UHGV virus genome: UHGV-0361696
Length of the DNA: 45,633 nt
Source of the DNA: a virus
Strand: one strand, 5' to 3'
A program made the translations under genes and the position numbers. The notes beneath the pieces were generated by a model. The model was given only the letters and a program-made list of their open reading frames with translations, ran no database searches and was not told the origin of the DNA. Positions within the stretch are counted from its first letter, which is position 1; every line of letters starts with the position of its first letter. Below, piece after piece: positions 3,437 through 44,339 of the stretch.

Positions 3437-4252
3437 TCACAACTTCTCCAGAATAGCCAGAACTTCACTTAACTCAGCGGAAGGAAGGCGCAAAAATTCT
3501 TCTGTTTCCTGTGCCACGTGGCCCTCAGCGACAACCATGTGATCTGCTTCTTTCAGCAACTGAATCAGGCGGTCAATCGGTTTAACTTTTTTTGCCTTGA
3601 GCGTTTTCGCCGTCACCTTATCCTTGCCCTGCGCTTTCGCTTCCTCAACGGCAGCATCAATAACGTTAACGGCATCATCTCCATGCTCGCGCGCCACTGC
3701 AACAGCGTTGGCATAGCTGATTTGGCCTGCGTTGATACGTTGCTTGATGGCATCAGGTACGTCACCAAGTGACAGGTGCATCTGCACATCAGAAACTGAG
3801 CGACCGACCTTCCTGGCGATTTCTTCATTCGTCCACCCGAACCCTTTCAGGCGCACATACGCCTTTGCACGCTCAAGCGGGTCGAGTTGCTTACCCTGAC
3901 TGGATGACACCATGAAGGCGATTTTATCCGCTTCATCGCCGGTGAAGTCTTTGCACTCAATGCGCGCAATTGGTACGCCGCGCTCAATAGCTCGCAGCGC
4001 GCCAAGATAACGATGCTGGCCGTCAAGAATCTTAATGCGCTTTCCGGCAGCATCAGGAATAACAGTTAACGCCGGGATTGGCTGTCCTGATTCCCAGCAC
4101 TGCGCGAAGTATTCAACGTGCTGCTCATCGGCTTCGCGGATGTTGTACCCCGGCTCAAGATAAAGCTGGTCGACAGGAACCTGATAACCTTTGTTGACCA
4201 CGATTCCGCCGCGAGTTTCTTTGTCTGAGTAAATTTTTCCGAGAGATGTCAT
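3437..4252 (-). CDS. ParB-like nuclease domain protein
   Basis: ILDGQHRY motif (ParB/Srx fold) plus a helix-turn-helix-like middle region. Start chosen at MTSLG with a GAGGA RBS. Confidence 0.6.
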   Translation of the reverse strand: MTSLGKIYSDKETRGGIVVNKGYQVPVDQLYLEPGYNIREADEQHVEYFAQCWESGQPIPALTVIPDAAGKRIKILDGQHRYLGALRAIERGVPIARIECKDFTGDEADKIAFMVSSSQGKQLDPLERAKAYVRLKGFGWTNEEIARKVGRSVSDVQMHLSLGDVPDAIKQRINAGQISYANAVAVAREHGDDAVNVIDAAVEEAKAQGKDKVTAKTLKAKKVKPIDRLIQLLKEADHMVVAEGHVAQETEEFLRLPSAELSEVLAILEKL

Positions 4253-4372: not shown

Positions 4373-4675
4373 TCATTGTGATTCTCCGATGGCTTTAGCA
4401 ATTGCGGCATAAGCCTTGCTCAAAGCAGTGGCATTCCTTTTTGTTGGCGTAGTGAAGACTACAAGCATCTCCAGAGCCTCCAGCAATTCCGGTGCTGCGG
4501 CCATCATTCGTTGGTTGGCAATTTGAACCTCAACTTCAGGGTCAAACTCAACCCAGCCGACAGGAATAATCATTCCATAAGACTGGTCGTCCTCTGTTGA
4601 TTTTGGCCCTATTGCCCTGCCGTTATCTATAAACCACGGCCCCGGCGTACCTTTAAATTCTTTCATCTTCATCAC
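4373..4675 (-). CDS. hypothetical protein (100 aa), first gene of minus operon
   Basis: ORF directly downstream of a TTGACG-17-TATAGT promoter. Confidence 0.5.
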   Translation of the reverse strand: MMKMKEFKGTPGPWFIDNGRAIGPKSTEDDQSYGMIIPVGWVEFDPEVEVQIANQRMMAAAPELLEALEMLVVFTTPTKRNATALSKAYAAIAKAIGESQ

Positions 4676-4706
4676 CTATAAAATTTATTGTTGTTTCTAC
4701 GTCATC

Positions 4707-4735
4707 ACTATAGCGGCACCCTCAATCTACGTCAA
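4707..4735 (-). promoter_or_regulatory. sigma70-like promoter TTGACG-17 nt-TATAGT containing the recurring TTGACGTAGATTGAG motif
   Basis: Reverse complement of 4707-4735 reads TTGACGTAGATTGAGGGTGCCGCTATAGT. It is almost identical to the plus-strand promoter at 28296-28324. Confidence 0.5.
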
Positions 4736-4896
4736 CACTTTATGATAAAATTAAACCAACAACACTCAACCCGCGCTGTTCCGTCCTGAAAAACGTAAGG
4801 CGGCGAAATTGGATATAGCAATCGGCGTTATCGTCATGGCGCTTTCGCTGGTTCAGGTGTACAGATGCTGGAAGTTCATCATTCGGAGAATAATTA

Positions 4897-6963: not shown

Positions 6964-7039
6964 TGGTTCCCGCGACAGGATTCGAACCTGTAATCATCCG
7001 ATTATGAGTCGGGTGCTTTAACCAGTTAAGCTAAACGGG
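6964..7039 (-). tRNA. tRNA-Met (anticodon CAT; could be tRNA-Ile2 if lysidinylated)
   Basis: Cloverleaf: acceptor TCCCGTT/CGCGGGA, D-stem GCTT/AAGC, anticodon loop CTCATAA, T-arm ACAGG-TTCGAAT-CCTGT, encoded CCA. Confidence 0.75.
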
Positions 7040-7043
7040 AATT

Positions 7044-7120
7044 TGGTGCACCATACTGGATTCGAACCAGTTACCGATTGCTTAGAAGGCAATTGCTCTA
7101 TCCTGATGAGCTAATGGTGC
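7044..7120 (-). tRNA. tRNA-Arg (anticodon TCT)
   Basis: Perfect 7-bp acceptor GCACCAT/ATGGTGC, D-stem GCTC/GAGC, anticodon stem ATTGC/GCAAT with loop CTTCTAA, T-arm ACTGG-TTCGAAT-CCAGT, encoded CCA. Confidence 0.8.
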
Positions 7121-7489: not shown

Positions 7490-7532
7490 ATTTAATCTAC
7501 ACTACCAACAAAACCTGTCAACATGATATAAT
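7490..7532 (+). promoter_or_regulatory. promoter with extended -10 (TGATATAAT) for the tail gene block
   Basis: AATCTACAC...CCTGTCAACATGATATAAT. Near-duplicate of the promoter at 9021-9062. Confidence 0.45.
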
Positions 7533-9020: not shown

Positions 9021-9062
9021 TTCAATCTACGTCAGTTTTGCTCCCCCTGTCAATGGTATAAT
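9021..9062 (+). promoter_or_regulatory. promoter with extended -10 (TGGTATAAT) plus upstream TTCAATCTACGTCA motif
   Basis: TTCAATCTACGTCA...CCTGTCAATGGTATAAT, about 30 nt upstream of the 9091 ATG. Confidence 0.45.
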
Positions 9063-14440: not shown

Positions 14441-16868
14441 TGTTCCTGCTGGCACTAATCTGTGGAGATGGCTGGAGAATTCCGGCCTTCCATCTGACAT
14501 CAGGATTGCGCTGAATGGCCGCATTTTTGGACCTGATGATGAATTATCGATATCGTTAAAGCAAAACGATATTGTTAACATTTACTGTCAGCCTCGCGGC
14601 GCCATTGGCGACCTTATCAGCACGATACTCAAGCCTGTAACTAAGGTTCTTTCTTTTCTGCTGCCAAAAGCATCAACGCCATCAACCAGCACTGGCGCGA
14701 CGGTTGAATCACCCAACAATAGCCTGAAATCGCAAACCAATATTGCGCGAAACGGAGAGGCAAGACCTGACAACTTCGGTCAGATAAGGGCATTCCCTGA
14801 CCTGATTCAGGAGTCACTTTTTGAATACATTGACGATCTGAAGTACGTCACTGAGTTCATGAACTTTGGCCTTGGGAAATACACCATTTCATCGGTTCGC
14901 TATGCGGAAACTAATCTTGGTTCTCTGCCAGGCGCCACTCATGTCATCTACAATCCAGGTGATGTGATCGGGCAAATCATTGAGCCTTACCAGTTCGACG
15001 GGCTTGATGGTCAGGAGGTTCCAGGGCTGAACGAGTCAGAGGACACCCCGATAGAGACAGCGACCACGACATCTGTTACCAGTGGCGATTATGCTGGCGG
15101 TCAGTTGTTAATAGTCATACCAAAAAACACTGATTTCGATTACTTCATGGGACTGTCTTTACCGCACTCTGTGTCATTAACAATAAATATCACCTACAAC
15201 TCCACATCCGGGCCAGTTACTGAAAATATTCAGCTTAGTGGCAACATCATTTCAGCTGAGGAAACTGAGACGGGAGTAATTCCTGATATTCAGTATTTCT
15301 ATAATTTTACCTTCAATAACCTGACCGGTGCAAATCTTGGCAACCTGACCGGCGCAACCATCAACGACACTTATTTCCAGATTGTGGATAATGAGGCGCT
15401 CGTTGTTGGCCCATATGTTGGAGCCGTGGAATCGACGCAGGTATGGGTTCATGTTCAGTCTGAACTTGGGCCTACCAGTGGCACGGCAGATTATCTGATC
15501 AAAGTATGGGCGGTTGATGATAATGGGGATGCCATTCCAGGAACCGAGGAGCAGCTCGCAGACAGTATTGACAACCCATTTAATCAGACAACAAAAACCT
15601 ATTATCGCACGTATAAATTAACTCCTGCTTATGGGCTGGCTAAGTATGCTATCAGCATTGAAAGGACAAACAACTCAAACTCTGGCAACCGCGTAACGTT
15701 GCAGGCGGCGCACGCTATCAACATCCGCGAGAATGTGGTTTATCCTGATGACACCCTTGTTAAAGTGACGGTGAAGGCCACGCTTCAGCCAACATCAGTT
15801 ACTGAGCGCAAATATAATGCGCTGATTACCCGCTGGACTATCGGATATAACAGAACAACCGGGACAGTCGACTATACGTTAACGCCATCAAGAAGTTTTG
15901 CAGATTCAGTGCTGCATAACTGGCTTATTACTGCTGGTCAGCCTGAAAGCACCATTGACGTGGGAAGGCTCTATGAAATAGCTGATGCGCTGCCTGACGC
16001 ACGTCTTGGGTACTTCGATTACACATTTGACGATGAGGATAAATCGATCGGTGAGCGAATTCAGACTATCTGTGATGCAGCGCGTGTAACCGTATTTTGG
16101 GATGATGGTGTTTTATCTTTTTCAAGAGATGAGCAAAAATCAACCCCTGAAACTGTGTTTAATACCAGAAACACGCAGGCTGATGGCTATAAAATGTCTT
16201 ATGACATGACTTTGCCGGGGTCATATGATGGCGTAAGCGTTCAGTACCGCGACCCAAACACCAACAAACAGGCTTACGTTTATTATAAAGTTGGCACTTC
16301 TGGTATAGAGCCTGGAGAACCAACTAAGCCGAAAAAATTCGACATGCTATACGTTCGAAATCTGTATCAGGCAACAGACAGAGCCATGCTTGAGTGCAAT
16401 CGTCTGATGTACTCACGCCGAGGGATGGAGATAAAGGCACTTGCTGATGGTGAGTGGGTGAACGTTGGCGATATGATTTCTGTTGTCGACATTTATGATT
16501 CTGTACAGCAGACAGGCGTTATCCGATCAAGGTCTGGAAACGTATTTACCACCAGTGAACAGCTTACGGCGGGAAGTGGCCTATTTGTGGTTATCACTGG
16601 CGCCAATGGGAATGTGTCAGAACGCCTGGCTTGCACCGTTACTGGATTGAATACATTCGAGTGCGCATTACCATCTGATTTCGAGTTAAACATTTTTGAC
16701 GGTGTTAATGTTCAGTCGGAATCAAGATATGCCATCTCTACAGAGATTGAACTTGATTCAACGTTATGGACAGTTAGCCAGAAAACTCCAGGTGCAGATG
16801 GCACAGTGTCTCTTACAGTAACTGAGTACAATGACGCCATGTACGCCTACACCAACCCTGTTGCGTGA
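14388..16868 (+). CDS. tail tip / host specificity protein: gpI-like N-terminus fused to a J-like central fibre protein
   Basis: 826 aa. The first 90 or so aa resemble the tail assembly protein I (ubiquitin-like) region. The rest is Thr/Asn-rich and beta-rich. Confidence 0.55.
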
Positions 16869-16906
16869 TACAATAGGGCAATTAATGATTATGGAGATTG
16901 CAGCTG

Positions 16907-22989: not shown

Positions 22990-24934
22990 TTTGTTCTCCT
23001 ATGAAATCCTTGCGGTGGATGATATCTCGGCCTTTATCGTTAAAACGATGCGTAATGCGTTTAGGCGCGCGGATTAAACCGGCGTAATGCATGAAAGTCT
23101 TCGCATCATGACAGTCCATCATTTTCTTCAGCATGGACTTATCTTCAAGATGAGGAAGCAGAGCCTTCATTTTAAACATATCGCGCAGATGCTTTGGCTT
23201 GCCTCCGAACGGATAAAACACCTCATTTGCCCAGCCGGTCTTGCCATCAGCTTTTACCACCAGGTAACGATAAAGAACCCCCTCAGCGTCTTTGGTCAAC
23301 TCGACTTTAAAATCTTGTACATCTGTCCATTCTTTATCGGTATAAGCACGCTCATTAAGCGCCGCATTAGGGTCGCGCAAAACGTGATCGCATTGACGGC
23401 AATAACGAGCTGTCGGATCGTTCTTTGTTCCACATCCATCATCAAAAATGCGGATGCCGTGCTTGTCGAAACCACAGCGAATGAAGCTGAAAAACTCTTC
23501 GCATCGTCCATCTGGAGACGTTGAGTCTTTACCGATGCAGCGCCGTGCATATGGGCTGTTCATCGTCTGGCATTTAGGGCATGGAACTTGCTCTCCGCTG
23601 CGTTTGGCGCGCTGTGCTTCTGCTTCCTCAAGAATAGGGTCTTCGTACAGACCGCCAAGCTCAAACATGGTTCCGGTGAAGTCAAGGCAAAGATGGTTTT
23701 CTTTCACCAGACCTGCGGCAATCTGGTCTGGCTTCAATAATCGCATTGGTCGGCCAAGTAACTGCGTCAGAAGAGTCAGGGACATGATTTTTCTCAGGAT
23801 GACAGACGTGTCCCAATATGGGATGTTGACGCCAGTCGTCAGGCAACCGATTTGCAGCGTGTATTTTTTGCGCCCGGTTGCCGCATCTTTCAGAGCTTTC
23901 CGTCTGGCTTTCTGCCCCATATCCTCGGTAACAATGGAATAACTGCCTTCTGGTAAATATTTTGCAGCCTCCTTGCAATGTTTTTTACCTGCGCAGGTAA
24001 TGAGTACACCAAGTCTGTCGCGCGTAAGCTCCATGACTTTGAGCATTATTTTTTGCGTCAATGTACCCTGCTTGAGGATTTCTTCCTGCATCTCTTTTAG
24101 CTGGCTATCAGTGAAGTCCTGCACTCCGTCAACGTCACTACTGGCAAACTCATGCAGATCGTATTGCAAGTCCTCGATATCCTGCCCGCCAAAGATGGTA
24201 GGGACAAGAAACCCAAGATCGACAAGGTATTTAGTGCTGATGTTGACGATTTCATGTTTCCAGTAAGCCCCTTTTATCGACTCAACGCCGCGAAATGGGC
24301 TGCCGGTGTAGCCAATGACAATCACCTCATGCCCGTACTTGGATTTGCAGCGCCGGTTAAGTTCATTCATGATGACACCGTACTGCGTCTCTGGCTGATC
24401 TGATATTATGTCCTGCCAGTTAACCTGGTGACATTCATCGACAAGGATGTAGCGAGGGGTAAAGTCCGAAAGCAAAGATTTTGTCACTGTGCCATCGTCT
24501 GCCGTCTTATCAAAAAGACCATTTATTATTGTGCCCTCTGTTCCCGCGATAAGCGGATAGGCATAAGCCTTACGCCCAAGTGAAGCGCTAAACAAAGAGT
24601 TTTTTACGCTCAGGTTCCAAAGCTCCTCAGCATCCTGCTCAATAATTTCGCCTTGTCTTGCGATGACAAGCCCCTCCCACCCCATATCCTGAAACCGACG
24701 GGCAATCATGGCTATCATGATGGTCTTACCGGCGCCAACTGATGCGGTAACATAACTTGGTTTAGGTTCTCTACCAAACTTGCGGATAACCTCCGCTGTC
24801 TTTTCATACACTAGCCACTGATATGGGCGAGGTTCAATTTCCCCGGTATGGATGCTGGCACGCAGCTTATCCATATCCAGCTCAGCAATCATTGCATCAA
24901 TTTTTTGCACTTCATCCACCTTTGTGTTGCTCAA
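22976..24934 (-). CDS. SF2 (DEAD/DEAH-like) DNA helicase with C-terminal zinc ribbons, TTG start
   Basis: Motif I SVGAGKT and motif II VDECHQV. C-terminal CPKC...C and CRQC clusters. The start codon is TTG at 24934-24932. Confidence 0.7.
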   Translation of the reverse strand: MSNTKVDEVQKIDAMIAELDMDKLRASIHTGEIEPRPYQWLVYEKTAEVIRKFGREPKPSYVTASVGAGKTIMIAMIARRFQDMGWEGLVIARQGEIIEQDAEELWNLSVKNSLFSASLGRKAYAYPLIAGTEGTIINGLFDKTADDGTVTKSLLSDFTPRYILVDECHQVNWQDIISDQPETQYGVIMNELNRRCKSKYGHEVIVIGYTGSPFRGVESIKGAYWKHEIVNISTKYLVDLGFLVPTIFGGQDIEDLQYDLHEFASSDVDGVQDFTDSQLKEMQEEILKQGTLTQKIMLKVMELTRDRLGVLITCAGKKHCKEAAKYLPEGSYSIVTEDMGQKARRKALKDAATGRKKYTLQIGCLTTGVNIPYWDTSVILRKIMSLTLLTQLLGRPMRLLKPDQIAAGLVKENHLCLDFTGTMFELGGLYEDPILEEAEAQRAKRSGEQVPCPKCQTMNSPYARRCIGKDSTSPDGRCEEFFSFIRCGFDKHGIRIFDDGCGTKNDPTARYCRQCDHVLRDPNAALNERAYTDKEWTDVQDFKVELTKDAEGVLYRYLVVKADGKTGWANEVFYPFGGKPKHLRDMFKMKALLPHLEDKSMLKKMMDCHDAKTFMHYAGLIRAPKRITHRFNDKGRDIIHRKDFIGEQIEAA

Positions 24935-24984
24935 TCTACGTCACAATAGTAGACTGAATCTACGGCAATAATCAAGGTTAAATT

Positions 24985-25942: not shown

Positions 25943-27598
25943 TCATTTCAGACCTCTCATAAATTTCATCCTGTTAACGGCGGCTGAAAGTATGTTTCTC
26001 ACCGAGGCATTCATTCGCAGTCCAGACCATGAACCCTCGTCCCTGAATACGATTTTTGACCCGCCATTAATGGCTGACGCCTCAATGTCGATGGGTGAGT
26101 GTCGGTTTTCTGTAATGGAAACCAGAACCTCAGAAATGAATCTATCCGGTGTCACCTGTAGATGATTTGAGTTTGCCGCCTTGATGATTGTCTCGATTCG
26201 ACCACGGCACAATCCGCTTTTCAGTACGGAAGTATAAGGCTTGTTAATGAATTTTTTACCAGCCATCACCTTTCTCATTTTGGCTATGATGTTTTCCCAC
26301 TCATCTTCTTCAAGACCGCTGAATGCAACATCACCTTCTATATAATCACGAAGTGATCGCAGGTGGTTAATCACTGTCATATAAGCCCATTCAAGATGCC
26401 GATCGCACAAAACTGGCGTCATTCCATTGCGACTAGAAAGGTCTGCAAATGCGCATATCGAGGCAAGGTCTACAATCATCTGCCCGGCACGTGGGACAAC
26501 ATCTCCAATTACACCATCCACATTTCCAAGACACTTCTCAAGGTGGCACGTAAGCTCATAACGCCTGTCGTTTACCTTTTCGCTTTCAAATTCAACACGT
26601 GTTATTGAGCGCAGGATTCTTTGCTTCCATTCATTTACTATCCTCCTGTTTACCTCACCTGTCGGCTGTTCTCTTTTGAGCAATGGCATTTCCTCATCAT
26701 CGCCATGACCAAGAATGAACAACGTCCTGCCCATGCCGCCATCCTTCTGCCATGACCTGACTGCATCAATACCCTGAACCGGAGTTACAGTGATGAGAGG
26801 AATAAATCGCGCGTTCTCAATGCCTCCATCACGCGTGCATAATTCATGCTCCGCCATCACTTTTTTCAGGTTTCTGCCGACACTGTGATCCATCTGAGCC
26901 AGTCTTTTATAATCAATCATCCCGTCCTGCGCACCGCCAATACGCGGAACAATCCAGCCTTCCGCCATAGCAACACTAACTATCGTCTTGGGGTTCATGG
27001 CTTTAGCCATATTCTCCTCAATATCCCTGATTATTGTCCTGGTTGGAACCCACCCACCTTCATCAGTCAAACTGCGATACCACGGCGCAGTTCCGCCAAG
27101 ATATGCGCTTCTCGGGTCATTCCATGAGTCAATATGCTGTTTGTCATCGTTTACGACGTAAAGCAGAGAGCCATCACCTTCAATCATGCTAGTCTGTATC
27201 TGCTTTAATGATGTAGCAGTAGTGGTGCAAAGGCGGTCGCTTATCATCAGGGCTTCGGCATATTGCTTTATAAAATTAACTGGCGCCTGCTTGCCAGCTC
27301 CAGAACGTGCCACGAGGAAAATTCCAGTTGAGCACTTACTTCCTGTTGGGCCGATAATAAATCTACCCGCCATTATCTGAGCAAGACCAAGCGCGCCAAC
27401 AAGTCGATATTTTTCGCCATCATCACGGCGCTCGAAATTTTTCTCTATCTCCTCGATGAACTCCCCAAGTGAACCGGGTGGGATCTTGTATTTATCCCTG
27501 AACTCAGGAATGTCAGCCTCATCGAGAGGGTCTATTGATGAATCCGCTTTCCCGACGGATTTTTTCATGGCGATAATTTCGTATGTATTCATCAGCAA
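25943..27598 (-). CDS. large early protein (551 aa) with degenerate P-loop, putative replication protein
   Basis: ARSGAGKQ is a Walker-A-like segment. No confident family assignment. Confidence 0.4.
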   Translation of the reverse strand: MLMNTYEIIAMKKSVGKADSSIDPLDEADIPEFRDKYKIPPGSLGEFIEEIEKNFERRDDGEKYRLVGALGLAQIMAGRFIIGPTGSKCSTGIFLVARSGAGKQAPVNFIKQYAEALMISDRLCTTTATSLKQIQTSMIEGDGSLLYVVNDDKQHIDSWNDPRSAYLGGTAPWYRSLTDEGGWVPTRTIIRDIEENMAKAMNPKTIVSVAMAEGWIVPRIGGAQDGMIDYKRLAQMDHSVGRNLKKVMAEHELCTRDGGIENARFIPLITVTPVQGIDAVRSWQKDGGMGRTLFILGHGDDEEMPLLKREQPTGEVNRRIVNEWKQRILRSITRVEFESEKVNDRRYELTCHLEKCLGNVDGVIGDVVPRAGQMIVDLASICAFADLSSRNGMTPVLCDRHLEWAYMTVINHLRSLRDYIEGDVAFSGLEEDEWENIIAKMRKVMAGKKFINKPYTSVLKSGLCRGRIETIIKAANSNHLQVTPDRFISEVLVSITENRHSPIDIEASAINGGSKIVFRDEGSWSGLRMNASVRNILSAAVNRMKFMRGLK

Positions 27599-27930
27599 AC
27601 CTTCCAGATGTACAGGAATTTACCCATCGGGCCGTTTTTGGTCTTAATGTTCATGTTATGCGCAATGGCAATCTTTGCAGCATAAGAGCGGAACATGTTT
27701 CTGTTCATTCGGTACTCTGGCGGGATATCAGATAAGCTGCATTCCTCTTTGTAGCCCCTGACTACTGAATCTGATATATCATTTTCGAAATGGACGGATA
27801 TCACCTCCCCGCTATTCATGGTGGCAAGGTGGTCATAAACGAACTTCATCTTTGAACCTTCTGCGTGCATCACTTCCTCCTTCTTGCGTTGTGCAAATTG
27901 TACTGAACAATCTGCACTCGCGCAAACCAT
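27592..27930 (-). CDS. hypothetical protein (start uncertain)
   Basis: ORF-track ORF. Several in-frame ATGs. Confidence 0.35.
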   Translation of the reverse strand: MVCASADCSVQFAQRKKEEVMHAEGSKMKFVYDHLATMNSGEVISVHFENDISDSVVRGYKEECSLSDIPPEYRMNRNMFRSYAAKIAIAHNMNIKTKNGPMGKFLYIWKVC

Positions 27931-27984
27931 TTAATCAACATAAACACCCAGCATCGACGTAATATGTGCAATGGCCAATTTTTA

Positions 27985-28256
27985 ACCAGTTCCCAAGAGT
28001 TCCCGCGCATTTGGGAACTCGCAGGCCGCTCGCACCAAGGCTTGCAGAGGAGTTCCCGAGTTCCCGGGGAATTCCTCTAGTAAAAAAGTAATATATACCT
28101 TTAATAGATGTTGTTGTTTTTATTAGTAAAAATGGAGTTTCTAATTTTTTGGAAAATTCATTTCTAAGGAAAAAGCTGGGAACTCGGGAACTCGTTGATA
28201 TATAACAATAAATTCCGGGAACTCGTCCGGGAACAGTTGGGAATTATGGGAACACT
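27985..28256. repeat. iteron-like array: about 10 copies of GGGAACTCG (and its inverse CGAGTTCCC) arranged symmetrically around a roughly 100-bp AT-rich core. Candidate origin or operator region.
   Basis: Left arm has CGAGTTCCC at 27997, 28050, 28058 and GGGAACTCG at 28013. Right arm has GGGAACTCG at 28178, 28186, 28218 and GGGAAC at 28229, 28248. Core 28081-28170 is over 75% AT. Confidence 0.55.
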
Positions 28257-28295
28257 GAATGAATATACAGTGTTATATTTATTTTCACCATCATA

Positions 28296-28324
28296 TTGAC
28301 GTAGATTGAGCGCCATCGTATAGT
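28296..28324 (+). promoter_or_regulatory. sigma70-like promoter TTGACG-17-TATAGT for the early plus-strand cluster
   Basis: TTGACGTAGATTGAGCGCCATCGTATAGT, 30 nt upstream of the 28356 ATG. Confidence 0.55.
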
Positions 28325-28355
28325 TACCACACCAACAACAAAGAGGTGATGAAGA

Positions 28356-28577
28356 ATGAAAAAAGGACAAATTGTTACAGCAACAAAAGTAAGCATTGGG
28401 TCGGATAGTTATCTTACAGAGGGTAAGTCTTATGAGATCGTTTCTGGTATTGGAGATGAATGCCAGTACGGAAAAATAAAAACAGAATTTGGATTCGAAA
28501 TAGTAAATGATATGGGTACGAAAAGCTTCTGCCTGTACCCAGAATGCCTTCACGCTAAATGGAGTATCTCAGAATGA
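28356..28577 (+). CDS. hypothetical early protein (73 aa)
   Basis: RBS AAGAGGTGATGAAGAATG. Confidence 0.5.
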   Translation: MKKGQIVTATKVSIGSDSYLTEGKSYEIVSGIGDECQYGKIKTEFGFEIVNDMGTKSFCLYPECLHAKWSISE

Positions 28578-31793: not shown

Positions 31794-31827
31794 TAGTTTC
31801 ATTGATCATCACCTCACCACCCTTTAA

Positions 31828-31853
31828 GCCAGCATCGCGCTGGCTTCTTTTTT
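31828..31853 (+). terminator. rho-independent terminator after the HNH gene
   Basis: GCCAGCATCGCGCTGGC followed by TTCTTTTTT. Confidence 0.55.
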
Positions 31854-31874
31854 ATCTACGCCATGTGGTAAGAT

Positions 31875-32351
31875 ATGTCCTATGTGAGTTACTCAAAGGA
31901 CACATATAAAATGGCAAATCCTAACCCTAAGCACAAATTTTCATCCAGCAATCAGCCTCCACCAAGAGGAAAAAGCTACAGAACAGTGCTTCTTGAAGCA
32001 TTACGAGCTGCAAATACACCGATGAATGAGATTGAATTCGTCACGTACTACATCAACAAGGCGATGACATGCGAAGACGCTCAGGCTACCGGAATGCTGC
32101 GTGAGATATTCCTGCGACTGAACCCAATTCCAAAGCCTGTAGCTCCCCCTGTTGAGTTTGATTTCCCTGCTGACGGTACGCCTGTGCAGAAGATGGATGC
32201 GATTATCAAGGGCGTCTCTACTGGCGTTGTTCCAGCCGATATTGGCAAGATGATGGCGGACATTCTGAAGGCAGGGCTTGATATCGAAGAGGTAACAGAG
32301 CTTGCGGCGCGCCTTGAGCGACTGGAGAAATTACTGGAGCAGCAACAGTAA
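31875..32351 (+). CDS. terminase small subunit (putative; true start likely 31911)
   Basis: Immediately upstream of terL. C-terminal coiled-coil LAARLERLEKLLEQQQ. An extended -10 promoter TGGTAAGAT at 31866-31874 implies the start is the downstream ATG. Confidence 0.45.
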   Translation: MSYVSYSKDTYKMANPNPKHKFSSSNQPPPRGKSYRTVLLEALRAANTPMNEIEFVTYYINKAMTCEDAQATGMLREIFLRLNPIPKPVAPPVEFDFPADGTPVQKMDAIIKGVSTGVVPADIGKMMADILKAGLDIEEVTELAARLERLEKLLEQQQ

Positions 32352-32450: not shown

Positions 32451-34970
32451 ATGGCACGCAAAAGACTCTCAGCACCAGCAATTGAAAAACTCGAAGAGAT
32501 TATTGGCGATGGCGTGATTGATGCGCCTGAATCTGCGGTGTTCGGTGTTGTTAATACAGATAAGCAGATTGTTCGCAAACTAAAAATGACGCAAAGCGGA
32601 GTTGATGACGTTAGCGACTCTGATATTGGCGTTGATCACCTGATACCAGAAAAGCTGGAAAAGCTACTTTACCCCAAGCGTAATAAGATTGTGTTTGGCG
32701 GGCGCGGATGCTTAGCCATCGGCACGATGGTGAGGATGTTTGATGGTAGCCTAAAACGCGTAGAGGATATCGTTGTTGGCGATAAGGTTATGGGTCCAGA
32801 CAGTAAACCACGAAATGTTTTAAACATCTGTCGGGGGTTTGATGACATGTATACGGTTCATCAAAAATATGCTGATGACTACACTGTCAACTCAAGTCAC
32901 ATACTGTCATTACGAAAGATTCCATCGGCTATCAGTGACGAGACAAAAACACCGGATGGTAAAAGAATTTATCGTTATTACCCGAATGAACCTGAAATAC
33001 TGAATATTGGTGTTTCAGAATATTTGTCGCGCGCAACTTCCAAAAAGTTCCGCCATGTCTTTAAAGGGTGGCGAACAGGATGGGATTTTAATGACCAAAG
33101 CGTCCCAGTTGACCCGTACTTTCTTGGTTTATGGTTAGGTGATGGTTCATCTCGTGGTGTTGAAGTGTGCACGCCTGATCCAGAGATAGTTGACTACATT
33201 CACAACGTGGCAAGCCAATACGGGATGCAGGTAAAGGTTCGCGACGATGATAGATGCCCTGTCTATGCGATAACTAATGGTCGAGCTGCTGGCATGGGGA
33301 AGAACACCAACCCGTTACTAACTAAAATGCAGCAGCTTGGGGTGATTAATAATAAACACATACCTGACTGCTATATCAAAAACAGCAGAGAGGTAAGACT
33401 TCAGATTCTGGCTGGGCTATTGGATACTGATTCGCATTATGACCAGAAAAAGAAAAGCTATTCTTTCACATCAATAAATAAAGAAATGGCCTTCTCTTTG
33501 ATGGATGTGGCAAGATCGCTTGGCTTCAAGTCAAGCATAATCAAAAAGACTGATGTCACCTTTGAATATAAAGGTGAGAAAAGAATATACGAAAAGGACG
33601 TATGGGAGGTGTTCGTTAGCGGGGACATTCACACAATCCCATGCCGAGTAAAAAGAAAGATAGCAGAGAAAACCAAGTCAACACGAGGAAAGATGACTGA
33701 GGTGTCATTGTCTTATGCCGGGCATGGTGAATACGCTGGGTTCACTCTTGATGGCGATCATCTTTTCTTGCTTGCTGATGGCACGGTTACACACAACAGC
33801 GGAAAAACAAGGACAGTAACAACGATACTTACGGAGCGTGCACGCTTTAAGCCTGACAGGATAGCTTGTTTTCGTGAGATTCAGCAGTCCATTGAAGATA
33901 GCTCATATCAGGAACTGAAGGACGAAATTGATCGCAAGGGAGAAACGAAAGAGTTTCGCGTCATCAATAATGAGATAACCCACAAAGGCACGAAGGCAAA
34001 ATTCAGATTTAAGGGGCTGTATCGCAACCAGACGACCGTTAAAGGCTTCGCTGGCATTACAGTAGCTTGGGTCGAGGAGGCGGAAAACGTCAGCCAGACA
34101 AGCTGGGAAATCCTCACCCCAACAGTCCGCGCTGAAGGGTCAGAGATATGGGTGACTTTCAACCCAAATAAAGAGCATGACCCGACGTGGAAAATATGGG
34201 TTGAGCCTTTTTATAATAAATTGCGCGAAAATGGCGGCATCTATGAGGATGATGAAAACCTGATTATCGAGTGTAATTACTCAGACAATCCGTGGTTCTG
34301 GGATACTCCCCTACCCAGCCAAATGCAACGCATGAAAGAGACCGACTTCGACCGCTATCAATGGGTGTGGGGCGGTCGCTTTAACAAGCGTAATGATGAG
34401 CAGGTATTTGGCGGTAAGTGGCGCGTTGCTGATTTCGAGGTTAAGCCGGAATGGCATGGGCCTTACTTTGGCATCGACTTTGGATTCTCGCAGGACGCAA
34501 CGGCGATGGTTGAGGTTTACATTGAGAAACTTCCTGATGACCGCCGCAACCTTTACGTCGCGCGCGAATACGGCCGTGTAGGCCTTGAGATTACCGACAC
34601 ACCTACAGCGATGGAGCAATCATTCCCACTCTCCAGGAAGGCAAGATGGTATGGGGACTGCTCTCGGCCAGAAACAATCAGTCACATCAAACGCGCAGGA
34701 TTTGATATCCATCCATGCAATAAGTGGCCCGGGAGCGTGGAGGAGGGTGTAACCTGGCTCAGGGGTTGCGACAGCATCATCATTCATGACCGCTGCACAC
34801 AGACTCAGGAAGAGTTCACTATGTACAGTTACAAGGTGGACAAGCTGACGGGTAACGTGCTCACAAATATTGTGGATGCGTGGAACCACTTCATTGACGC
34901 AATAAGATATGCATGCAACGATCACATCGTACAGCGTGGCTCTGGATGGATTAGAAGGAGCAGGAGATGA
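32451..34970 (+). CDS. terL: terminase large subunit interrupted by an intein
   Basis: Extein Walker A reconstitutes as GGRG|SGKT once residues C92-N454 are removed. Terminase nuclease-like C-terminal half. RBS GAGG 9 nt upstream of the ATG at 32451. Confidence 0.85.
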   Translation: MARKRLSAPAIEKLEEIIGDGVIDAPESAVFGVVNTDKQIVRKLKMTQSGVDDVSDSDIGVDHLIPEKLEKLLYPKRNKIVFGGRGCLAIGTMVRMFDGSLKRVEDIVVGDKVMGPDSKPRNVLNICRGFDDMYTVHQKYADDYTVNSSHILSLRKIPSAISDETKTPDGKRIYRYYPNEPEILNIGVSEYLSRATSKKFRHVFKGWRTGWDFNDQSVPVDPYFLGLWLGDGSSRGVEVCTPDPEIVDYIHNVASQYGMQVKVRDDDRCPVYAITNGRAAGMGKNTNPLLTKMQQLGVINNKHIPDCYIKNSREVRLQILAGLLDTDSHYDQKKKSYSFTSINKEMAFSLMDVARSLGFKSSIIKKTDVTFEYKGEKRIYEKDVWEVFVSGDIHTIPCRVKRKIAEKTKSTRGKMTEVSLSYAGHGEYAGFTLDGDHLFLLADGTVTHNSGKTRTVTTILTERARFKPDRIACFREIQQSIEDSSYQELKDEIDRKGETKEFRVINNEITHKGTKAKFRFKGLYRNQTTVKGFAGITVAWVEEAENVSQTSWEILTPTVRAEGSEIWVTFNPNKEHDPTWKIWVEPFYNKLRENGGIYEDDENLIIECNYSDNPWFWDTPLPSQMQRMKETDFDRYQWVWGGRFNKRNDEQVFGGKWRVADFEVKPEWHGPYFGIDFGFSQDATAMVEVYIEKLPDDRRNLYVAREYGRVGLEITDTPTAMEQSFPLSRKARWYGDCSRPETISHIKRAGFDIHPCNKWPGSVEEGVTWLRGCDSIIIHDRCTQTQEEFTMYSYKVDKLTGNVLTNIVDAWNHFIDAIRYACNDHIVQRGSGWIRRSRR
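32709..33797 (+). mobile_element. intein (363 aa) with LAGLIDADG homing endonuclease domain, inserted in the terL P-loop
   Basis: Begins with Cys (CLAIGTMV), ends with THN followed by Ser. Two LAGLIDADG motifs (LGLWLGDG and ILAGLLDTDS). The interior is AT-rich. Confidence 0.8.
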
Positions 34971-35281: not shown

Positions 35282-35307
35282 AAGATTTCTCCGAGAGGTT
35301 TCATTTT

Positions 35308-35337
35308 AATCTACGCCATGCTAGAATCTACGTCAAG
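35308..35337. promoter_or_regulatory. divergent promoter pair built on two copies of the AATCTACG(Y)CA motif
   Basis: Plus strand has AATCTACGCCA followed by TGCTAGAAT (extended -10). Minus strand has TTGACG-17-TAGATT. Confidence 0.45.
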
Positions 35338-36397: not shown

Positions 36398-36432
36398 TAC
36401 CATGCTATAATCCCATCCATGCGATGGGATTT
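36398..36432 (+). terminator. rho-independent terminator
   Basis: ATCCCATCCATGCGATGGGAT followed by TTTTT. Confidence 0.55.
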
Positions 36433-39177: not shown

Positions 39178-39467
39178 TATTTGTCGCCCATCGTTGACAG
39201 GCAGACTTCACGGGCGACAGCGGCCACTTCTTTCGGTGTCTTGTCTGTCATTTTGTATGCCCCATCAACGATGGCCTTGCTGAGTTGGTTAAATTCAGCG
39301 CTATACTGGCCTCCAAAAGAAACAATCAGCGCGAGCTGCTTTGATACGCCAGCATCACGGGCTTCTGCTACCGCTTCACCGAACTCACCAACTGCATTGC
39401 AAAACTCGCCAGCCGACGCACCAAATGAAGCCATTGCGAATACTGCTGCTGCGATTAATTTTTTCAT
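39177..39467 (-). CDS. secreted/periplasmic protein with signal peptide (96 aa)
   Basis: MKKLIAAAVFAMASFGASA-GEF resembles an SPase I signal peptide. Driven by a motif promoter near 39500-39526. Confidence 0.5.
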   Translation of the reverse strand: MKKLIAAAVFAMASFGASAGEFCNAVGEFGEAVAEARDAGVSKQLALIVSFGGQYSAEFNQLSKAIVDGAYKMTDKTPKEVAAVAREVCLSTMGDK

Positions 39468-39510
39468 TTTTTACTCTCCTGTGTTTGTGTATCTACATCA
39501 TCGCTTACGA

Positions 39511-39542
39511 TTCAATCTACGTCAAGACTATTGTGATAAAAT
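39511..39542. promoter_or_regulatory. divergent promoter region: TTCAATCTACGTCAAG motif plus extended -10 TGATAAAAT for the endolysin gene
   Basis: Motif at 39511-39526. TGATAAAAT at 39534-39542, 25 nt before the endolysin ATG. Confidence 0.45.
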
Positions 39543-41790: not shown

Positions 41791-41885
41791 TGCCTCTCTC
41801 CTGTGAAATCATCTTGACTAATCTACGTCAATTAGTCAATACTAGGTGTTGTAGATTGTATCATAGTTGCTAGGAGTGGTGTGGA

Positions 41886-42603: not shown

Positions 42604-43108
42604 TCATGAGGTTGTTTTGTCGTTAATCAATTATAACCCAGAGTCTGGGGAATTCACCAGAAAGAATGGAAAGCAATGCGGTACAAAAACAACGAAGGGG
42701 TACATCCATGTGCGATTGCTTGGTAAAAAGCGTCTTGCGCATCGTTTGGCTTGGTTTTATGTCTACGGCGAATGGCCAGAGCATGAAATTGACCATATTA
42801 ACGGAGTAAAGGATGACAACAGGATATGCAATCTAAGGAAGGCAACAAGACAACAAAATGAATGGAACAAGCCGCAGCCAAGCACCAACACGTCTGGCGT
42901 CAAGGGTGTGCGGTTTATGTCAAGTAGAGGAAAATGGCGTGCTGATTGCGTGAGAAAAACACTTGGTTACTTTGACACAAAGCAAGATGCTATTAATGCG
43001 TTAATTAAGCACAGGAGTGAAAAACAAGGGGAATTCAAAAATCACGGCCACCTCTACACCGCTGACGACTACAAGCAAGATGCAATGGAGCGCGCAAATG
43101 GACTTTAA
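42584..43108 (+). CDS. HNH-AP2 homing endonuclease (paralogue 3 of 3)
   Basis: AHRLAWFYVYGEWPEHEIDHINGVKDDNRICNLR plus NTSGVKGVRFMSSRGKWRA. Start chosen at MMKCD (GAGG RBS). Overlaps the 3' end of the Lar-like gene. AT-rich. Confidence 0.8.
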   Translation: MMKCDLNHEVVLSLINYNPESGEFTRKNGKQCGTKTTKGYIHVRLLGKKRLAHRLAWFYVYGEWPEHEIDHINGVKDDNRICNLRKATRQQNEWNKPQPSTNTSGVKGVRFMSSRGKWRADCVRKTLGYFDTKQDAINALIKHRSEKQGEFKNHGHLYTADDYKQDAMERANGL

Positions 43109-43568
43109 AACACAAATACTCACGGTGATAGAGCGCTGCGGCGGCGCAACCAATGCCATGATACGCAAGCAGACTGGCATGACAAACCGAGCCAGCGTTA
43201 CTGGTTATCTGATTGAGCTTGAGGGCATGGGATTTATTATTAAAGAGGAAAGCGTAAGCCATGGCAGGCGCTGCTTTAAGTATTTCCTCAATCCCGATAA
43301 TACTGCGCTTGACCTGGCAATTCAGACCTATCTTGAGGCGAACCCGGGACGCAAGAGCAAGCAGATAGCAGAGGCTGTAGGCGTCAATTACACCATCCTC
43401 AAGGCGCGCATGCGCTATCTGGCAAGCATTGGTCAGGTTGACCGTGAAATGCTTCCCGGCGGAGCATGGAAATATTACTGGCAGGAAATCATTCCGTTTG
43501 GAATGAGTCGTGACAGGATGATGTTTGAAAAGCTACTTGCCGGGGCGCGTCAGTCATGTGGGCGGTAA
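43098..43568 (+). CDS. winged-helix DNA-binding protein (MarR-like), possible transcription regulator
   Basis: NAMIRKQTGMTNRASVTGYLIELEGMGFI resembles a wHTH recognition region. Start overlaps the HNH gene end. Confidence 0.45.
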   Translation: MDFKTQILTVIERCGGATNAMIRKQTGMTNRASVTGYLIELEGMGFIIKEESVSHGRRCFKYFLNPDNTALDLAIQTYLEANPGRKSKQIAEAVGVNYTILKARMRYLASIGQVDREMLPGGAWKYYWQEIIPFGMSRDRMMFEKLLAGARQSCGR

Positions 43569-44216: not shown

Positions 44217-44339
44217 ATGCCAATCATACTGATATCATTCTTTGCTACTCTTTTCGCTTTTACCGCATCTCCGCTTTACCTTCTCGCGTCCGTTTCGTGG
44301 TGCATATTCATGGTGTGTTATAATCCGGGCATAAAGTAA
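44217..44339 (+). CDS. small hydrophobic peptide (40 aa)
   Basis: Strong RBS CAGGAGGTAGCAGCC-ATG. Translation MPIILISFFATLFAFTASPLYLLASVSWCIFMVCYNPGIK. Its 3' end contains the extended -10 TGTTATAAT (44316-44326). Confidence 0.3.
   Translation: MPIILISFFATLFAFTASPLYLLASVSWCIFMVCYNPGIK

Follow-up and report, generated by a model that had tools for sequence, protein, structure and literature searches.

A short asymmetric repeat forms a common core of predicted -35/-10 promoters in Roufvirus/Skatevirus-type siphoviruses and may double as an operator

Background

At positions 4707-4735 of the stretch of DNA analysed here (virus genome UHGV-0361696, 45,633 nucleotides, hereafter the window), a promoter-like pair of hexamers overlaps a short sequence that returns at many other intergenic sites. 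The question raised by this locus is what the repeat is for: is it only a favoured version of the host promoter, or is it also the site of a regulator? A first-pass annotation, made from the letters alone, had proposed a phage-specific regulator binding site that co-ordinates accessory cassettes and early and late units, with a winged-helix (wHTH) protein encoded at 43098-43568 as the candidate binder.

The phage and its relatives

The window is a Roufvirus/Skatevirus-type siphovirus, a Klebsiella-type phage, with about 90% coding and 10% non-coding sequence. Aeromonas phage pIS4-A (genus Roufvirus) and Klebsiella phages such as KpnS_VR6602 and BUCT541 match it at 90-97% identity over long stretches, and the Skatevirus/Segzyvirus cluster, with phages of Salmonella and E. 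coli, contains its farther relatives. Gene order is common to the whole group: early, packaging, head, lysis and tail genes follow one another in a long plus-strand series, into which short minus-strand cassettes and a replication/recombination block, also on the minus strand, are set. For most proteins of the early operon, no conservation across the group was seen. Neither the annotation of four relatives nor Pfam and PHROG scans of the window proteins revealed an integrase or a CI-like repressor gene.

Several features of this layout were recorded on the way. In the product of the terL gene (32451-34970, 839 aa), the Terminase_3 domains are preceded by an intein whose Hint and LAGLIDADG homing-endonuclease domains occupy residues 87-370, and several relatives have an intein-free terL of 474 aa. 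Just upstream, 31911-32351 encodes a protein of 146 aa without a Pfam family, which is 96-98% identical group-wide, matching the major capsid protein and far above terL, and which could represent the small terminase. In the interval 27960-28260, which separates the early operon from the leftward helicase/primase unit, at least ten GGGAAC(T)/GTTCCC repeats are densely arranged in both orientations around an AT-rich stretch and look like replication-origin iterons; the repeat at this place differs in relatives, being ACCC-rich (TTAACCCA/TAACCC) in pIS4-A and TTTTTTATAC in Segz_1.

Sequence and enrichment of the motif

Read along the direction of transcription, the 14 copies of the window share the unit T-G-A-Y-G-T-A-G-A-T, usually followed by T, any base and A. 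Positions T0, G4, T5, A6, G7 and A8 are invariant in these 14 sites and the unit amounts to about 17 bits. Its 5' half, with the preceding T, gives the -35-like hexamer TTGACG and its 3' half the -10-like TAGATT. The count matrix is asymmetric, the invariant GTAGA having no symmetric partner.

The motif is clearly enriched. Searches with the 13-mer TCAATCTACGTCA, allowing up to two mismatches, gave nine matches against 0.78 expected (none of 100 shuffles reached nine), and the 10-mer ATCTACGTCA, with at most one mismatch, gave 15 against 1.8. A position matrix built in a single pass from strict seeds returned 12 non-coding and 2 coding matches of 12 bits or more, against 1.1 in shuffles; the overall range quoted for this matrix is 12-15 non-coding matches and 2 coding ones. 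These numbers bear out the previous claim of at least ten intergenic sites. Iterating the matrix at a low threshold made it drift into coding GATGA-rich sequence, with 306 "sites", and this version was discarded.

Nine of the ten near-identical copies formerly reported were recovered (4722-4734, 9022-9034, 24931-24943, 24955-24967, 28297-28309, 31854-31863, 35306-35318, 35323-35335 and 39512-39524). The tenth, placed at 41828-41842, reads TCAATTAGTCAATAC and is not a copy; the real one lies at 41818-41830, accompanied by a degenerate inverted copy, TGTTGTAGATTG, at 41847-41858. Among the reported variants, those at 7494-7506 and 39491-39500 were retained, whereas 27954-27966 (TCGACGTAATATG) was rejected because relatives do not conserve it and its score stays under 8.5 bits. 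An additional copy, 4695-4704, had been used in the first-pass annotation only as a flank.

Twelve copies point leftward, one or two of them for every leftward unit except one, and two rightward, the latter before the early operon (28356 onward) and before the plus-strand unit from 41886. The statement that every antisense cassette is marked holds for seven of the eight leftward units, which have a good copy; the remaining unit (25943-27870) has only a weak GTGCAGATTG within a TTGCGC-17-TACAAT promoter-like sequence. Distances between neighbouring copies are 10, 17, 24, 25 and 30-31 bp for direct pairs, and inverted pairs are separated by gaps of 9-28 bp, a heterogeneity that does not suggest a simple cooperative dimer.

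Other readings of the letters were set aside. Hidden palindromy, a TTGA-N6-TTGA direct repeat and MetJ, FNR, CRP, DnaA and IHF sites did not fit the conserved columns. Strand-specific nick sites of the T5 or phiKMV type were rejected because the motif is oriented with transcription on either strand. Weak matches at start codons (TGATGAAGAT at 4665, TGATGAAGAA at 28347 and TGGTGTGGAA at 41877) are Shine-Dalgarno/start-codon contexts and not copies; the first genes of two units (4660-4675 and 28343-28358) have in common the start context GGTGATGAAGA(A)TG, a weak mimic of the motif (TGATGAAGAT).

Copies, registers and predicted promoters

The copies of the window and the promoters predicted around them are as follows.

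4725-4734, minus strand: copy in -35 register, with syntenic copies in loci L001-L004, L125 and L127
4735-4707, minus strand: predicted promoter TTGACG (4735-4730), 17 nt, TATAGT (4712-4707), toward the leftward cassette 4666-2403 with ParB-like and RusA-like genes
4695-4704, minus strand: second copy, TGACGTAGAA, 2 nt past the TATAGT -10 and 28 nt before the start codon at 4666
7495-7504, minus strand: variant TAGTGTAGAT in -10 register (7494-7506 scores 12.0 bits)
7521-7494, minus strand: predicted promoter TTGACA (7521-7516), 16 nt, TAGATT (7499-7494), toward tRNA-Arg and tRNA-Met (7120-6964)
9025-9034, minus strand: copy in -10 register
9053-9024, minus strand: predicted promoter TTGACA (9053-9048), 18 nt, TAGATT (9029-9024), toward the leftward small-gene cassette 8993-8312
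24958-24967, minus strand: variant TGCCGTAGAT, in the spacer of a weak predicted TTGATT-18-TACTAT promoter of the leftward replication/recombination module (helicase 24934-22976 onward)
24934-24943, minus strand: copy TGACGTAGAT, 2 nt past the TACTAT -10 and 23 nt before the likely GTG start of the helicase
28297-28306, plus strand: copy TGACGTAGAT in -35 register, matrix score 22.5 bits, conserved in relatives
28296-28324, plus strand: predicted promoter TTGACG (28296-28301), 17 nt, TATAGT (28319-28324), toward the plus-strand early operon that starts at 28356
31854-31863, minus strand: orphan copy TGGCGTAGAT, with no leftward gene
35326-35335, minus strand: copy in -35 register, TTGACG (35336-35331), its predicted -10 being the TAGATT of the next copy, 17 nt away
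35309-35318, minus strand: copy TGGCGTAGAT in -10 register, TAGATT (35313-35308), 27 nt before the leftward gene 35281-34991
39515-39524, minus strand: copy in -35 register, predicted promoter TTGACG (39525-39520), 17 nt, GATGAT (39502-39497), toward the leftward cassette 39467-38859
39491-39500, minus strand: second copy, TGATGTAGAT, 18.6 bits, overlapping the -10 and predicted start of the 39515 promoter, 23 nt before the start codon at 39467
41821-41830, minus strand: copy between TTGACT (41841-41836) and the leftward cassette 41790-40908
41847-41856, plus strand: degenerate copy TGTTGTAGAT, 29 nt before the plus-strand unit from 41886 (Lar-like, HNH, wHTH and others)

With respect to sigma70-type hexamers, at least four registers of the motif can be distinguished: (i) as the -35, with a -10 located 17 nt downstream (28297, 4725, 39515 and 35326); (ii) as the -10, preceded at a spacing of 16-18 nt by TTGACA or TTGACG (9025, 7495 and 35309, as well as many sites of Segz_1, Bas81 and seszw and the tRNA promoter of KpnS_VR6602); (iii) within the spacer (24958, 41821 and the pIS4-A promoter upstream of an HNH endonuclease gene, locus L001, which reads TTGACG-A-TGATGTAGAT-TCATTG-TAATTT) and (iv) right after the -10, around the predicted start (4695, 24934, 39491 and 41847). 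Since the motif fuses TTGACG to TAGATT, a single copy can be used as a -35 or as a -10, and two copies offset by 17 bp make up a complete predicted promoter. The -35 role had been noticed before, and the pairs of TTGACG with TATAGT or TAGATT at a 17-nt spacing were confirmed at 4707-4735, 28296-28324 and 35308-35336; the -10 role of the 3' half, seen at many sites, had been missed.

A sigma70 hexamer pair at 16-18 nt spacing is present at 28296, 4735, 35336, 39525, 9053 and 7521, and is weak or ambiguous at 24958/24934 and 41821; equivalents of these geometries are numerous in Segz_1, Bas81 and seszw. The promoter at 28296 is the best sigma70-like match of the scanned region (10/12). Sigma70-like matches as such are not over-represented in that region (16 found, 18.5 expected), so that our promoter calls rest on context and not on statistics. 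In five genomes, 51 of the 67 non-coding sites point to a gene start on the same strand within 90 nt. Proximal copies gather at 23-36 nt from the start and -35-register copies at 44-60 nt, as one would expect if copies near the -10 and copies in the -35 register were followed by short leaders.

Some sites deserve a closer description. The 4695 copy is kept as TGRCGTAGAAACAACAATAAAT in all relatives and, lying 2 nt past the -10, is therefore around the predicted transcription start, an operator-like position. The two-copy layout of the helicase promoter (24958 and 24934) is similar in seszw. Perfect 9-bp inverted arms, TTGACTAAT (41814-41822) and ATTAGTCAA (41831-41839), 8 bp apart, enclose the 41821 copy and supply divergent TTGACT -35-like hexamers, an arrangement kept in 17 unique relatives; 13 unique relatives keep the 41847 copy, just past a TTGACT-18-AATACT match, in the form TG..GTAGATT. 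At 31854, the orphan copy adjoins the terminator of the early operon (31826-31846 plus a T-run) on one side, and on the other only 2 nt separate it from the extended -10 TGGTAAGAT (31866-31874) that belongs to the terS/terL unit.

Two observations on leaders were made. The minus-strand tRNAs at 6964-7120 are tRNA-Met (CAT) and tRNA-Arg (TCT); their predicted motif promoter is about 375 nt upstream in the window and only 18 nt upstream in KpnS_VR6602; the orthologue of the 7495 copy in L002 is 18 nt upstream of the tRNA. In pIS4-A (L001 44453-44600), TTGACG-17-TAATTT is followed by ACTCAC and then by ATG, and the HNH endonuclease gene concerned, upstream of the helicase, appears from this arrangement to be leaderless.

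Conservation across the phage group

The genome-wide search and the conservation check recommended by the first-pass annotation gave concordant results, the motif being enriched and kept at syntenic sites in Klebsiella, Salmonella and E. coli phages. It occurs at syntenic intergenic positions in pIS4-A, KpnS_VR6602, Segz_1 (Salmonella), Bas81 (E. coli), the Logan contig L125, seszw and the more distant subgroup formed by L198 and L199. The terL DNA of phages with syntenic copies is only about 65-70% identical to that of the window over the part that aligns. In clusters of orthologous sites, conservation is 0.90-1.00 in the columns of the motif and 0.56-0.99 in the flanks; an exact 14-mer had served to retrieve many of the relatives, which inflates the figures of those clusters, and the clusters retrieved otherwise show the same pattern. 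The site density of in-group loci is about 0.39 per kb (0.28 without the selecting match), compared with about 0.03 extra sites per kb in out-group loci. No enrichment was found in unrelated viral contigs that hold the 14-mer.

Conservation extends to the copies that are not hexamers of a promoter. Those at about +1 (4695, 24934 and 39491) and in spacers (24958 and 41821) are conserved, a partner copy is inverted at L003 43/71 and L004 8555/8583, the copy at the 39491 position is inverted in Skate-like relatives, and each of the five genomes retains the 31854 orphan, even where, as in Skate-like phages, a usable -35 is missing at this site.

Although most of their early proteins are not conserved, phages of Klebsiella, Salmonella and E. 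coli have an identical motif, as would be expected if a DNA-binding protein of the host (Enterobacteriaceae) read it and the phages recruited this protein to time or boost their early promoters. We consider this very unlikely, however, as the enterobacterial consensuses considered (CRP, FNR, MetJ, DnaA, IHF, OmpR-type repeats) do not match, and the only non-phage occurrence noticed is within chance expectation. This occurrence is an E. coli island at thrW-proA, beside a serine recombinase gene (L022 8500-8550, also L008, L067 and L128), where an inverted pair, ATCTACATCA-N9-TTGACGTAGATTGAGG, is followed by TAGACT at the -10 position in a promoter-like setting. The pair is found in about 630 of 5426 E. 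coli genomes, outside the phage group; the two-copy out-group loci of IMG/VR all represent this one island and were dropped.

Relatives keep the promoter, and in some cases the first gene, but carry very different cassette cargo behind it. Such a pattern could suggest that the repeats are mainly recombination linkers used in cassette swapping between phages, their promoter activity being incidental. Units of 10-13 bp are nevertheless too short for efficient homologous exchange, their orientation and their distance of 23-36 nt to start codons are promoter-like, and copies also precede conserved core genes (helicase, tRNAs and the ParB-like cassette). We therefore regard linkers as an extremely improbable explanation.

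RNA polymerase alone or an additional protein

A more serious alternative is that RNA polymerase is the only reader. The motif would then be an extended consensus for the host sigma70 holoenzyme, whose region 4 would contact TTGACG and whose region 2 would contact TAGATT; copies just past the -10 would act as -10-like elements and cause sigma70-dependent promoter-proximal pausing, and the extra bases would reflect promoter strength or shared descent of the cassettes, with no dedicated DNA-binding protein. Indeed, both halves are good hexamer mimics at the correct 16-18 nt spacings. Elements resembling a -10 act in pausing just past the start, as in lambda PR'-type pausing, and the copies at 4695, 24934 and 39491 place TAGAA or TAGAT a few bases past the predicted start. 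The putative wHTH regulator, moreover, can be deleted and the phage is still viable. This account leaves unexplained the conservation of TAGAT right after the -35 hexamer and of T-17, G-16 and G-13 before the -10, as well as the spacer copies, the inverted partners and the 31854 orphan. A -35 needs no TAGAT after it and a -10 needs no T-17, G-16 or G-13 before it, although these three bases are conserved in the -10-register sites; sigma70 is not known to read them. This suggests that the motif is contacted by more than RNA polymerase, and polymerase as sole reader is in our opinion possible but doubtful.

The conservation of the whole 10-bp unit, together with the copies in spacers, at starts and at one site without a gene, points instead to an operator, and the several registers and the orphan site favour a lineage-specific protein as its reader. 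The motif probably doubles as a docking site for a regulator. Such a binder would act as a repressor of early and accessory promoters, since its sites cover a -35, a -10 or a start.

A second predicted promoter class

The motif had also been described as lying, in its other orientation, immediately upstream of extended -10 elements. Such elements (TGnTAnnAT) do occur and lack a -35; they number 23 on the plus strand and 6 on the minus strand. The following were considered as a predicted class of late promoters.

4743-4751, plus strand: extended -10 TGnTAnnAT, taken as the example of the class
7524-7532, plus strand: extended -10
9054-9062, plus strand: extended -10
16866-16874, plus strand: extended -10
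31866-31874, plus strand: extended -10
35319-35327, plus strand: extended -10
36403-36411, plus strand: extended -10
39534-39542, plus strand: extended -10
44316-44324, plus strand: extended -10

Eight intergenic elements of this type are located 24-57 nt upstream of structural or lysis genes. Their tie to the motif was not upheld: the gap between the two varies from 0 to 19 nt, and no motif was found near the extended -10 sites at 16866, 36403 and 44316. The extended -10 promoters are back-to-back partners of the leftward motif promoters and the motif is no element of them; the gap varies because the leftward partners use the motif in different registers. Two classes of promoters are thus predicted, namely -35/-10 promoters built on the motif for non-structural genes and extended -10 promoters for late genes. 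The idea of a phage-specific regulator site stands in part, as conservation beyond the sigma70 hexamers plausibly indicates a phage-specific DNA-binding protein, but without the link to extended -10 promoters.

Candidate binding proteins

Two proteins encoded in the window were considered.

3437-4252, minus strand: candidate binder of the ParB/Spo0J/KorB family with an HTH (Pfam HTH_ParB 7.9e-11, KorB 1e-5; PDB matches Spo0J 3.8e-11, KorB 2.5e-4)
43098-43568, plus strand: candidate binder of 156 aa with two tandem winged-helix domains (sub-threshold HTH_24 and MarR in Pfam; phrog_1687; AlphaFold pLDDT 74)

That the motif is the operator of the winged-helix protein, co-ordinating the cassettes and the early/late units, and also part of extended -10 promoters, has some attractions. 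Two tandem winged-helix domains in one chain of 156 aa would suit an asymmetric site bound by a monomer, the gene sits in a unit preceded by motif copies, and protein family and motif are both confined to this phage group: only six relatives were detected among 1.84 billion representative proteins, all apparently from the group, and homologue and profile searches returned nothing outside it. The recognition helix of the second domain (Y-x-I-x-K-x-R-x-R), read by eye, is similar in the divergent homologue P0025. The protein is, however, a poor fit for the distribution of the sites. Its identity between phages of the Roufvirus type and of the Skate type, which have an unchanged motif, is only 38-44%; it is absent from seszw_290S, a viable genome-reduced Skatevirus mutant that keeps 17 motif sites, and it is undetectable in the motif-bearing loci L198 and L199. 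The motif-free extended -10 promoters and their variable spacing to the motif argue against this proposal as well. A fold search gave only generic winged-helix matches (TM about 0.4), from which no specificity can be read. The label "MarR-like", with the corresponding operator, was rejected: the protein does not reach the Pfam cut-offs for MarR and consists of two wHTH domains in tandem, the site is asymmetric, and the regulator is missing where the sites persist. Overall, we hold the winged-helix protein to be quite unlikely as the reader in this role.

The ParB-like protein co-occurs with the sites. It is about 80% identical across the group and retained in seszw_290S; it is 66-100% identical in motif-bearing phages, and 43%-identical homologues are found in motif-free loci, prophage-like loci carrying such a homologue having zero motif sites. 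It is, however, a core gene of the group anyway, which limits the weight of this co-occurrence. Proteins of the ParB/KorB family normally read palindromes, and the motif, being asymmetric, is not a palindromic site of 13-16 bp as known for them. In the alignment with the PDB match, the CTP-binding arginine patch is apparently degenerate (GQHRY instead of GERRY).

Proposed function

We propose that the motif is the common core of the -35/-10 host-sigma70 promoters of the group and, at the same time, the operator of a lineage-specific protein that would shut early and accessory transcription. We give this reading a probability of about 0.5. Briefly, motif promoters would drive the plus-strand early operon, the unit from 41886, the tRNAs, the replication/recombination module and each minus-strand accessory cassette. 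A lineage-restricted, sequence-specific protein would read the 10-bp unit and, once bound, would occlude the -35, the -10 or the start site, so that early and accessory transcription would be shut down. Structural and lysis genes would run from the extended -10 promoters, which would need no -35. As several of the latter sit in the same short divergent regions as leftward promoters, relief from these overlapping promoters could in addition favour the late extended -10 promoters.

A bolder version would have a ParB/KorB-like or other lineage-specific factor read the asymmetric operator in every early and accessory promoter, as a plasmid-style global regulator in a virulent siphovirus that switches overlapping back-to-back promoters from -35-dependent early to extended -10 late units; we find this version unlikely.

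Roufvirus/Skatevirus-type siphoviruses are common phages of Klebsiella, Salmonella and E. coli, and collections of them are being built with therapy and genome reduction in mind. For them the motif provides a testable transcription map, with probable early and accessory units, probable late units and probable regulator sites, which can serve annotation, the promoter-safe design of reduced or engineered genomes and the finding of accessory "moron" cassettes. Current ideas on phage gene control are not overturned by it.

Comparison with known systems

The motif strings were not found in a phage context in the searchable literature, where full-text matches were unrelated primer sequences only, and neither a promoter analysis nor a TSS map was found in the Roufvirus/Skatevirus papers. 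Known systems nevertheless offer partial parallels. In T4 (AsiA) and Thermus phage P23-45 (gp39), there is a similar division between -35/-10 promoters for non-structural genes and TGnTAnnAT promoters without a -35 for structural and lysis genes. No AsiA- or gp39-like factor was identified here, and these phages have no counterpart of the conserved 10-bp unit inside their early promoters.

Extra conserved sequence at or next to the -35 recalls the T4 MotA box and the lambda CII site TTGC-N6-TTGC, and the -35-register copies of the motif contain TTGA-N6-TTGA. MotA boxes and CII sites, however, have one fixed position and replace a poor -35, whereas the motif has at least four registers and a near-consensus -35. 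It is not confined, as the MotA box is, to a single position centred at -30 in place of the -35, and the CII-like second TTGA is not conserved in the -10-register copies.

The KorB operators (OB) of RK2 and the dispersed centromere sites bound by N15 SopB are similar in that a ParB/KorB-family HTH protein is encoded here and a dozen sites are spread over promoter regions. OB, parS and sopC are nonetheless palindromes bound by dimers, unlike the asymmetric phage motif.

Closest in behaviour are the stoperators bound by gp71 of mycobacteriophage L5, asymmetric sites of about 13 bp repeated in many intergenic regions, with an orientation tied to transcription and a -35-like TTGAC overlapping the early promoter. 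The motif is likewise short, asymmetric, intergenic, orientation-tied and overlapping a -35; as repressor operators or stoperators do, it forms intergenic repeats that are conserved beyond the hexamers and overlap the -35, the -10 or +1. The sequences are unrelated, and the motif here also supplies the -10. L5 is moreover temperate and its binder is the immunity repressor, whereas no integrase or CI-like repressor is seen here and the window does not correspond to an L5-like temperate phage with an immunity repressor. The motif is thus new to the literature searched but familiar in kind, a promoter core doubling as an operator, to which its use as either a -35 or a -10 adds a neat twist.
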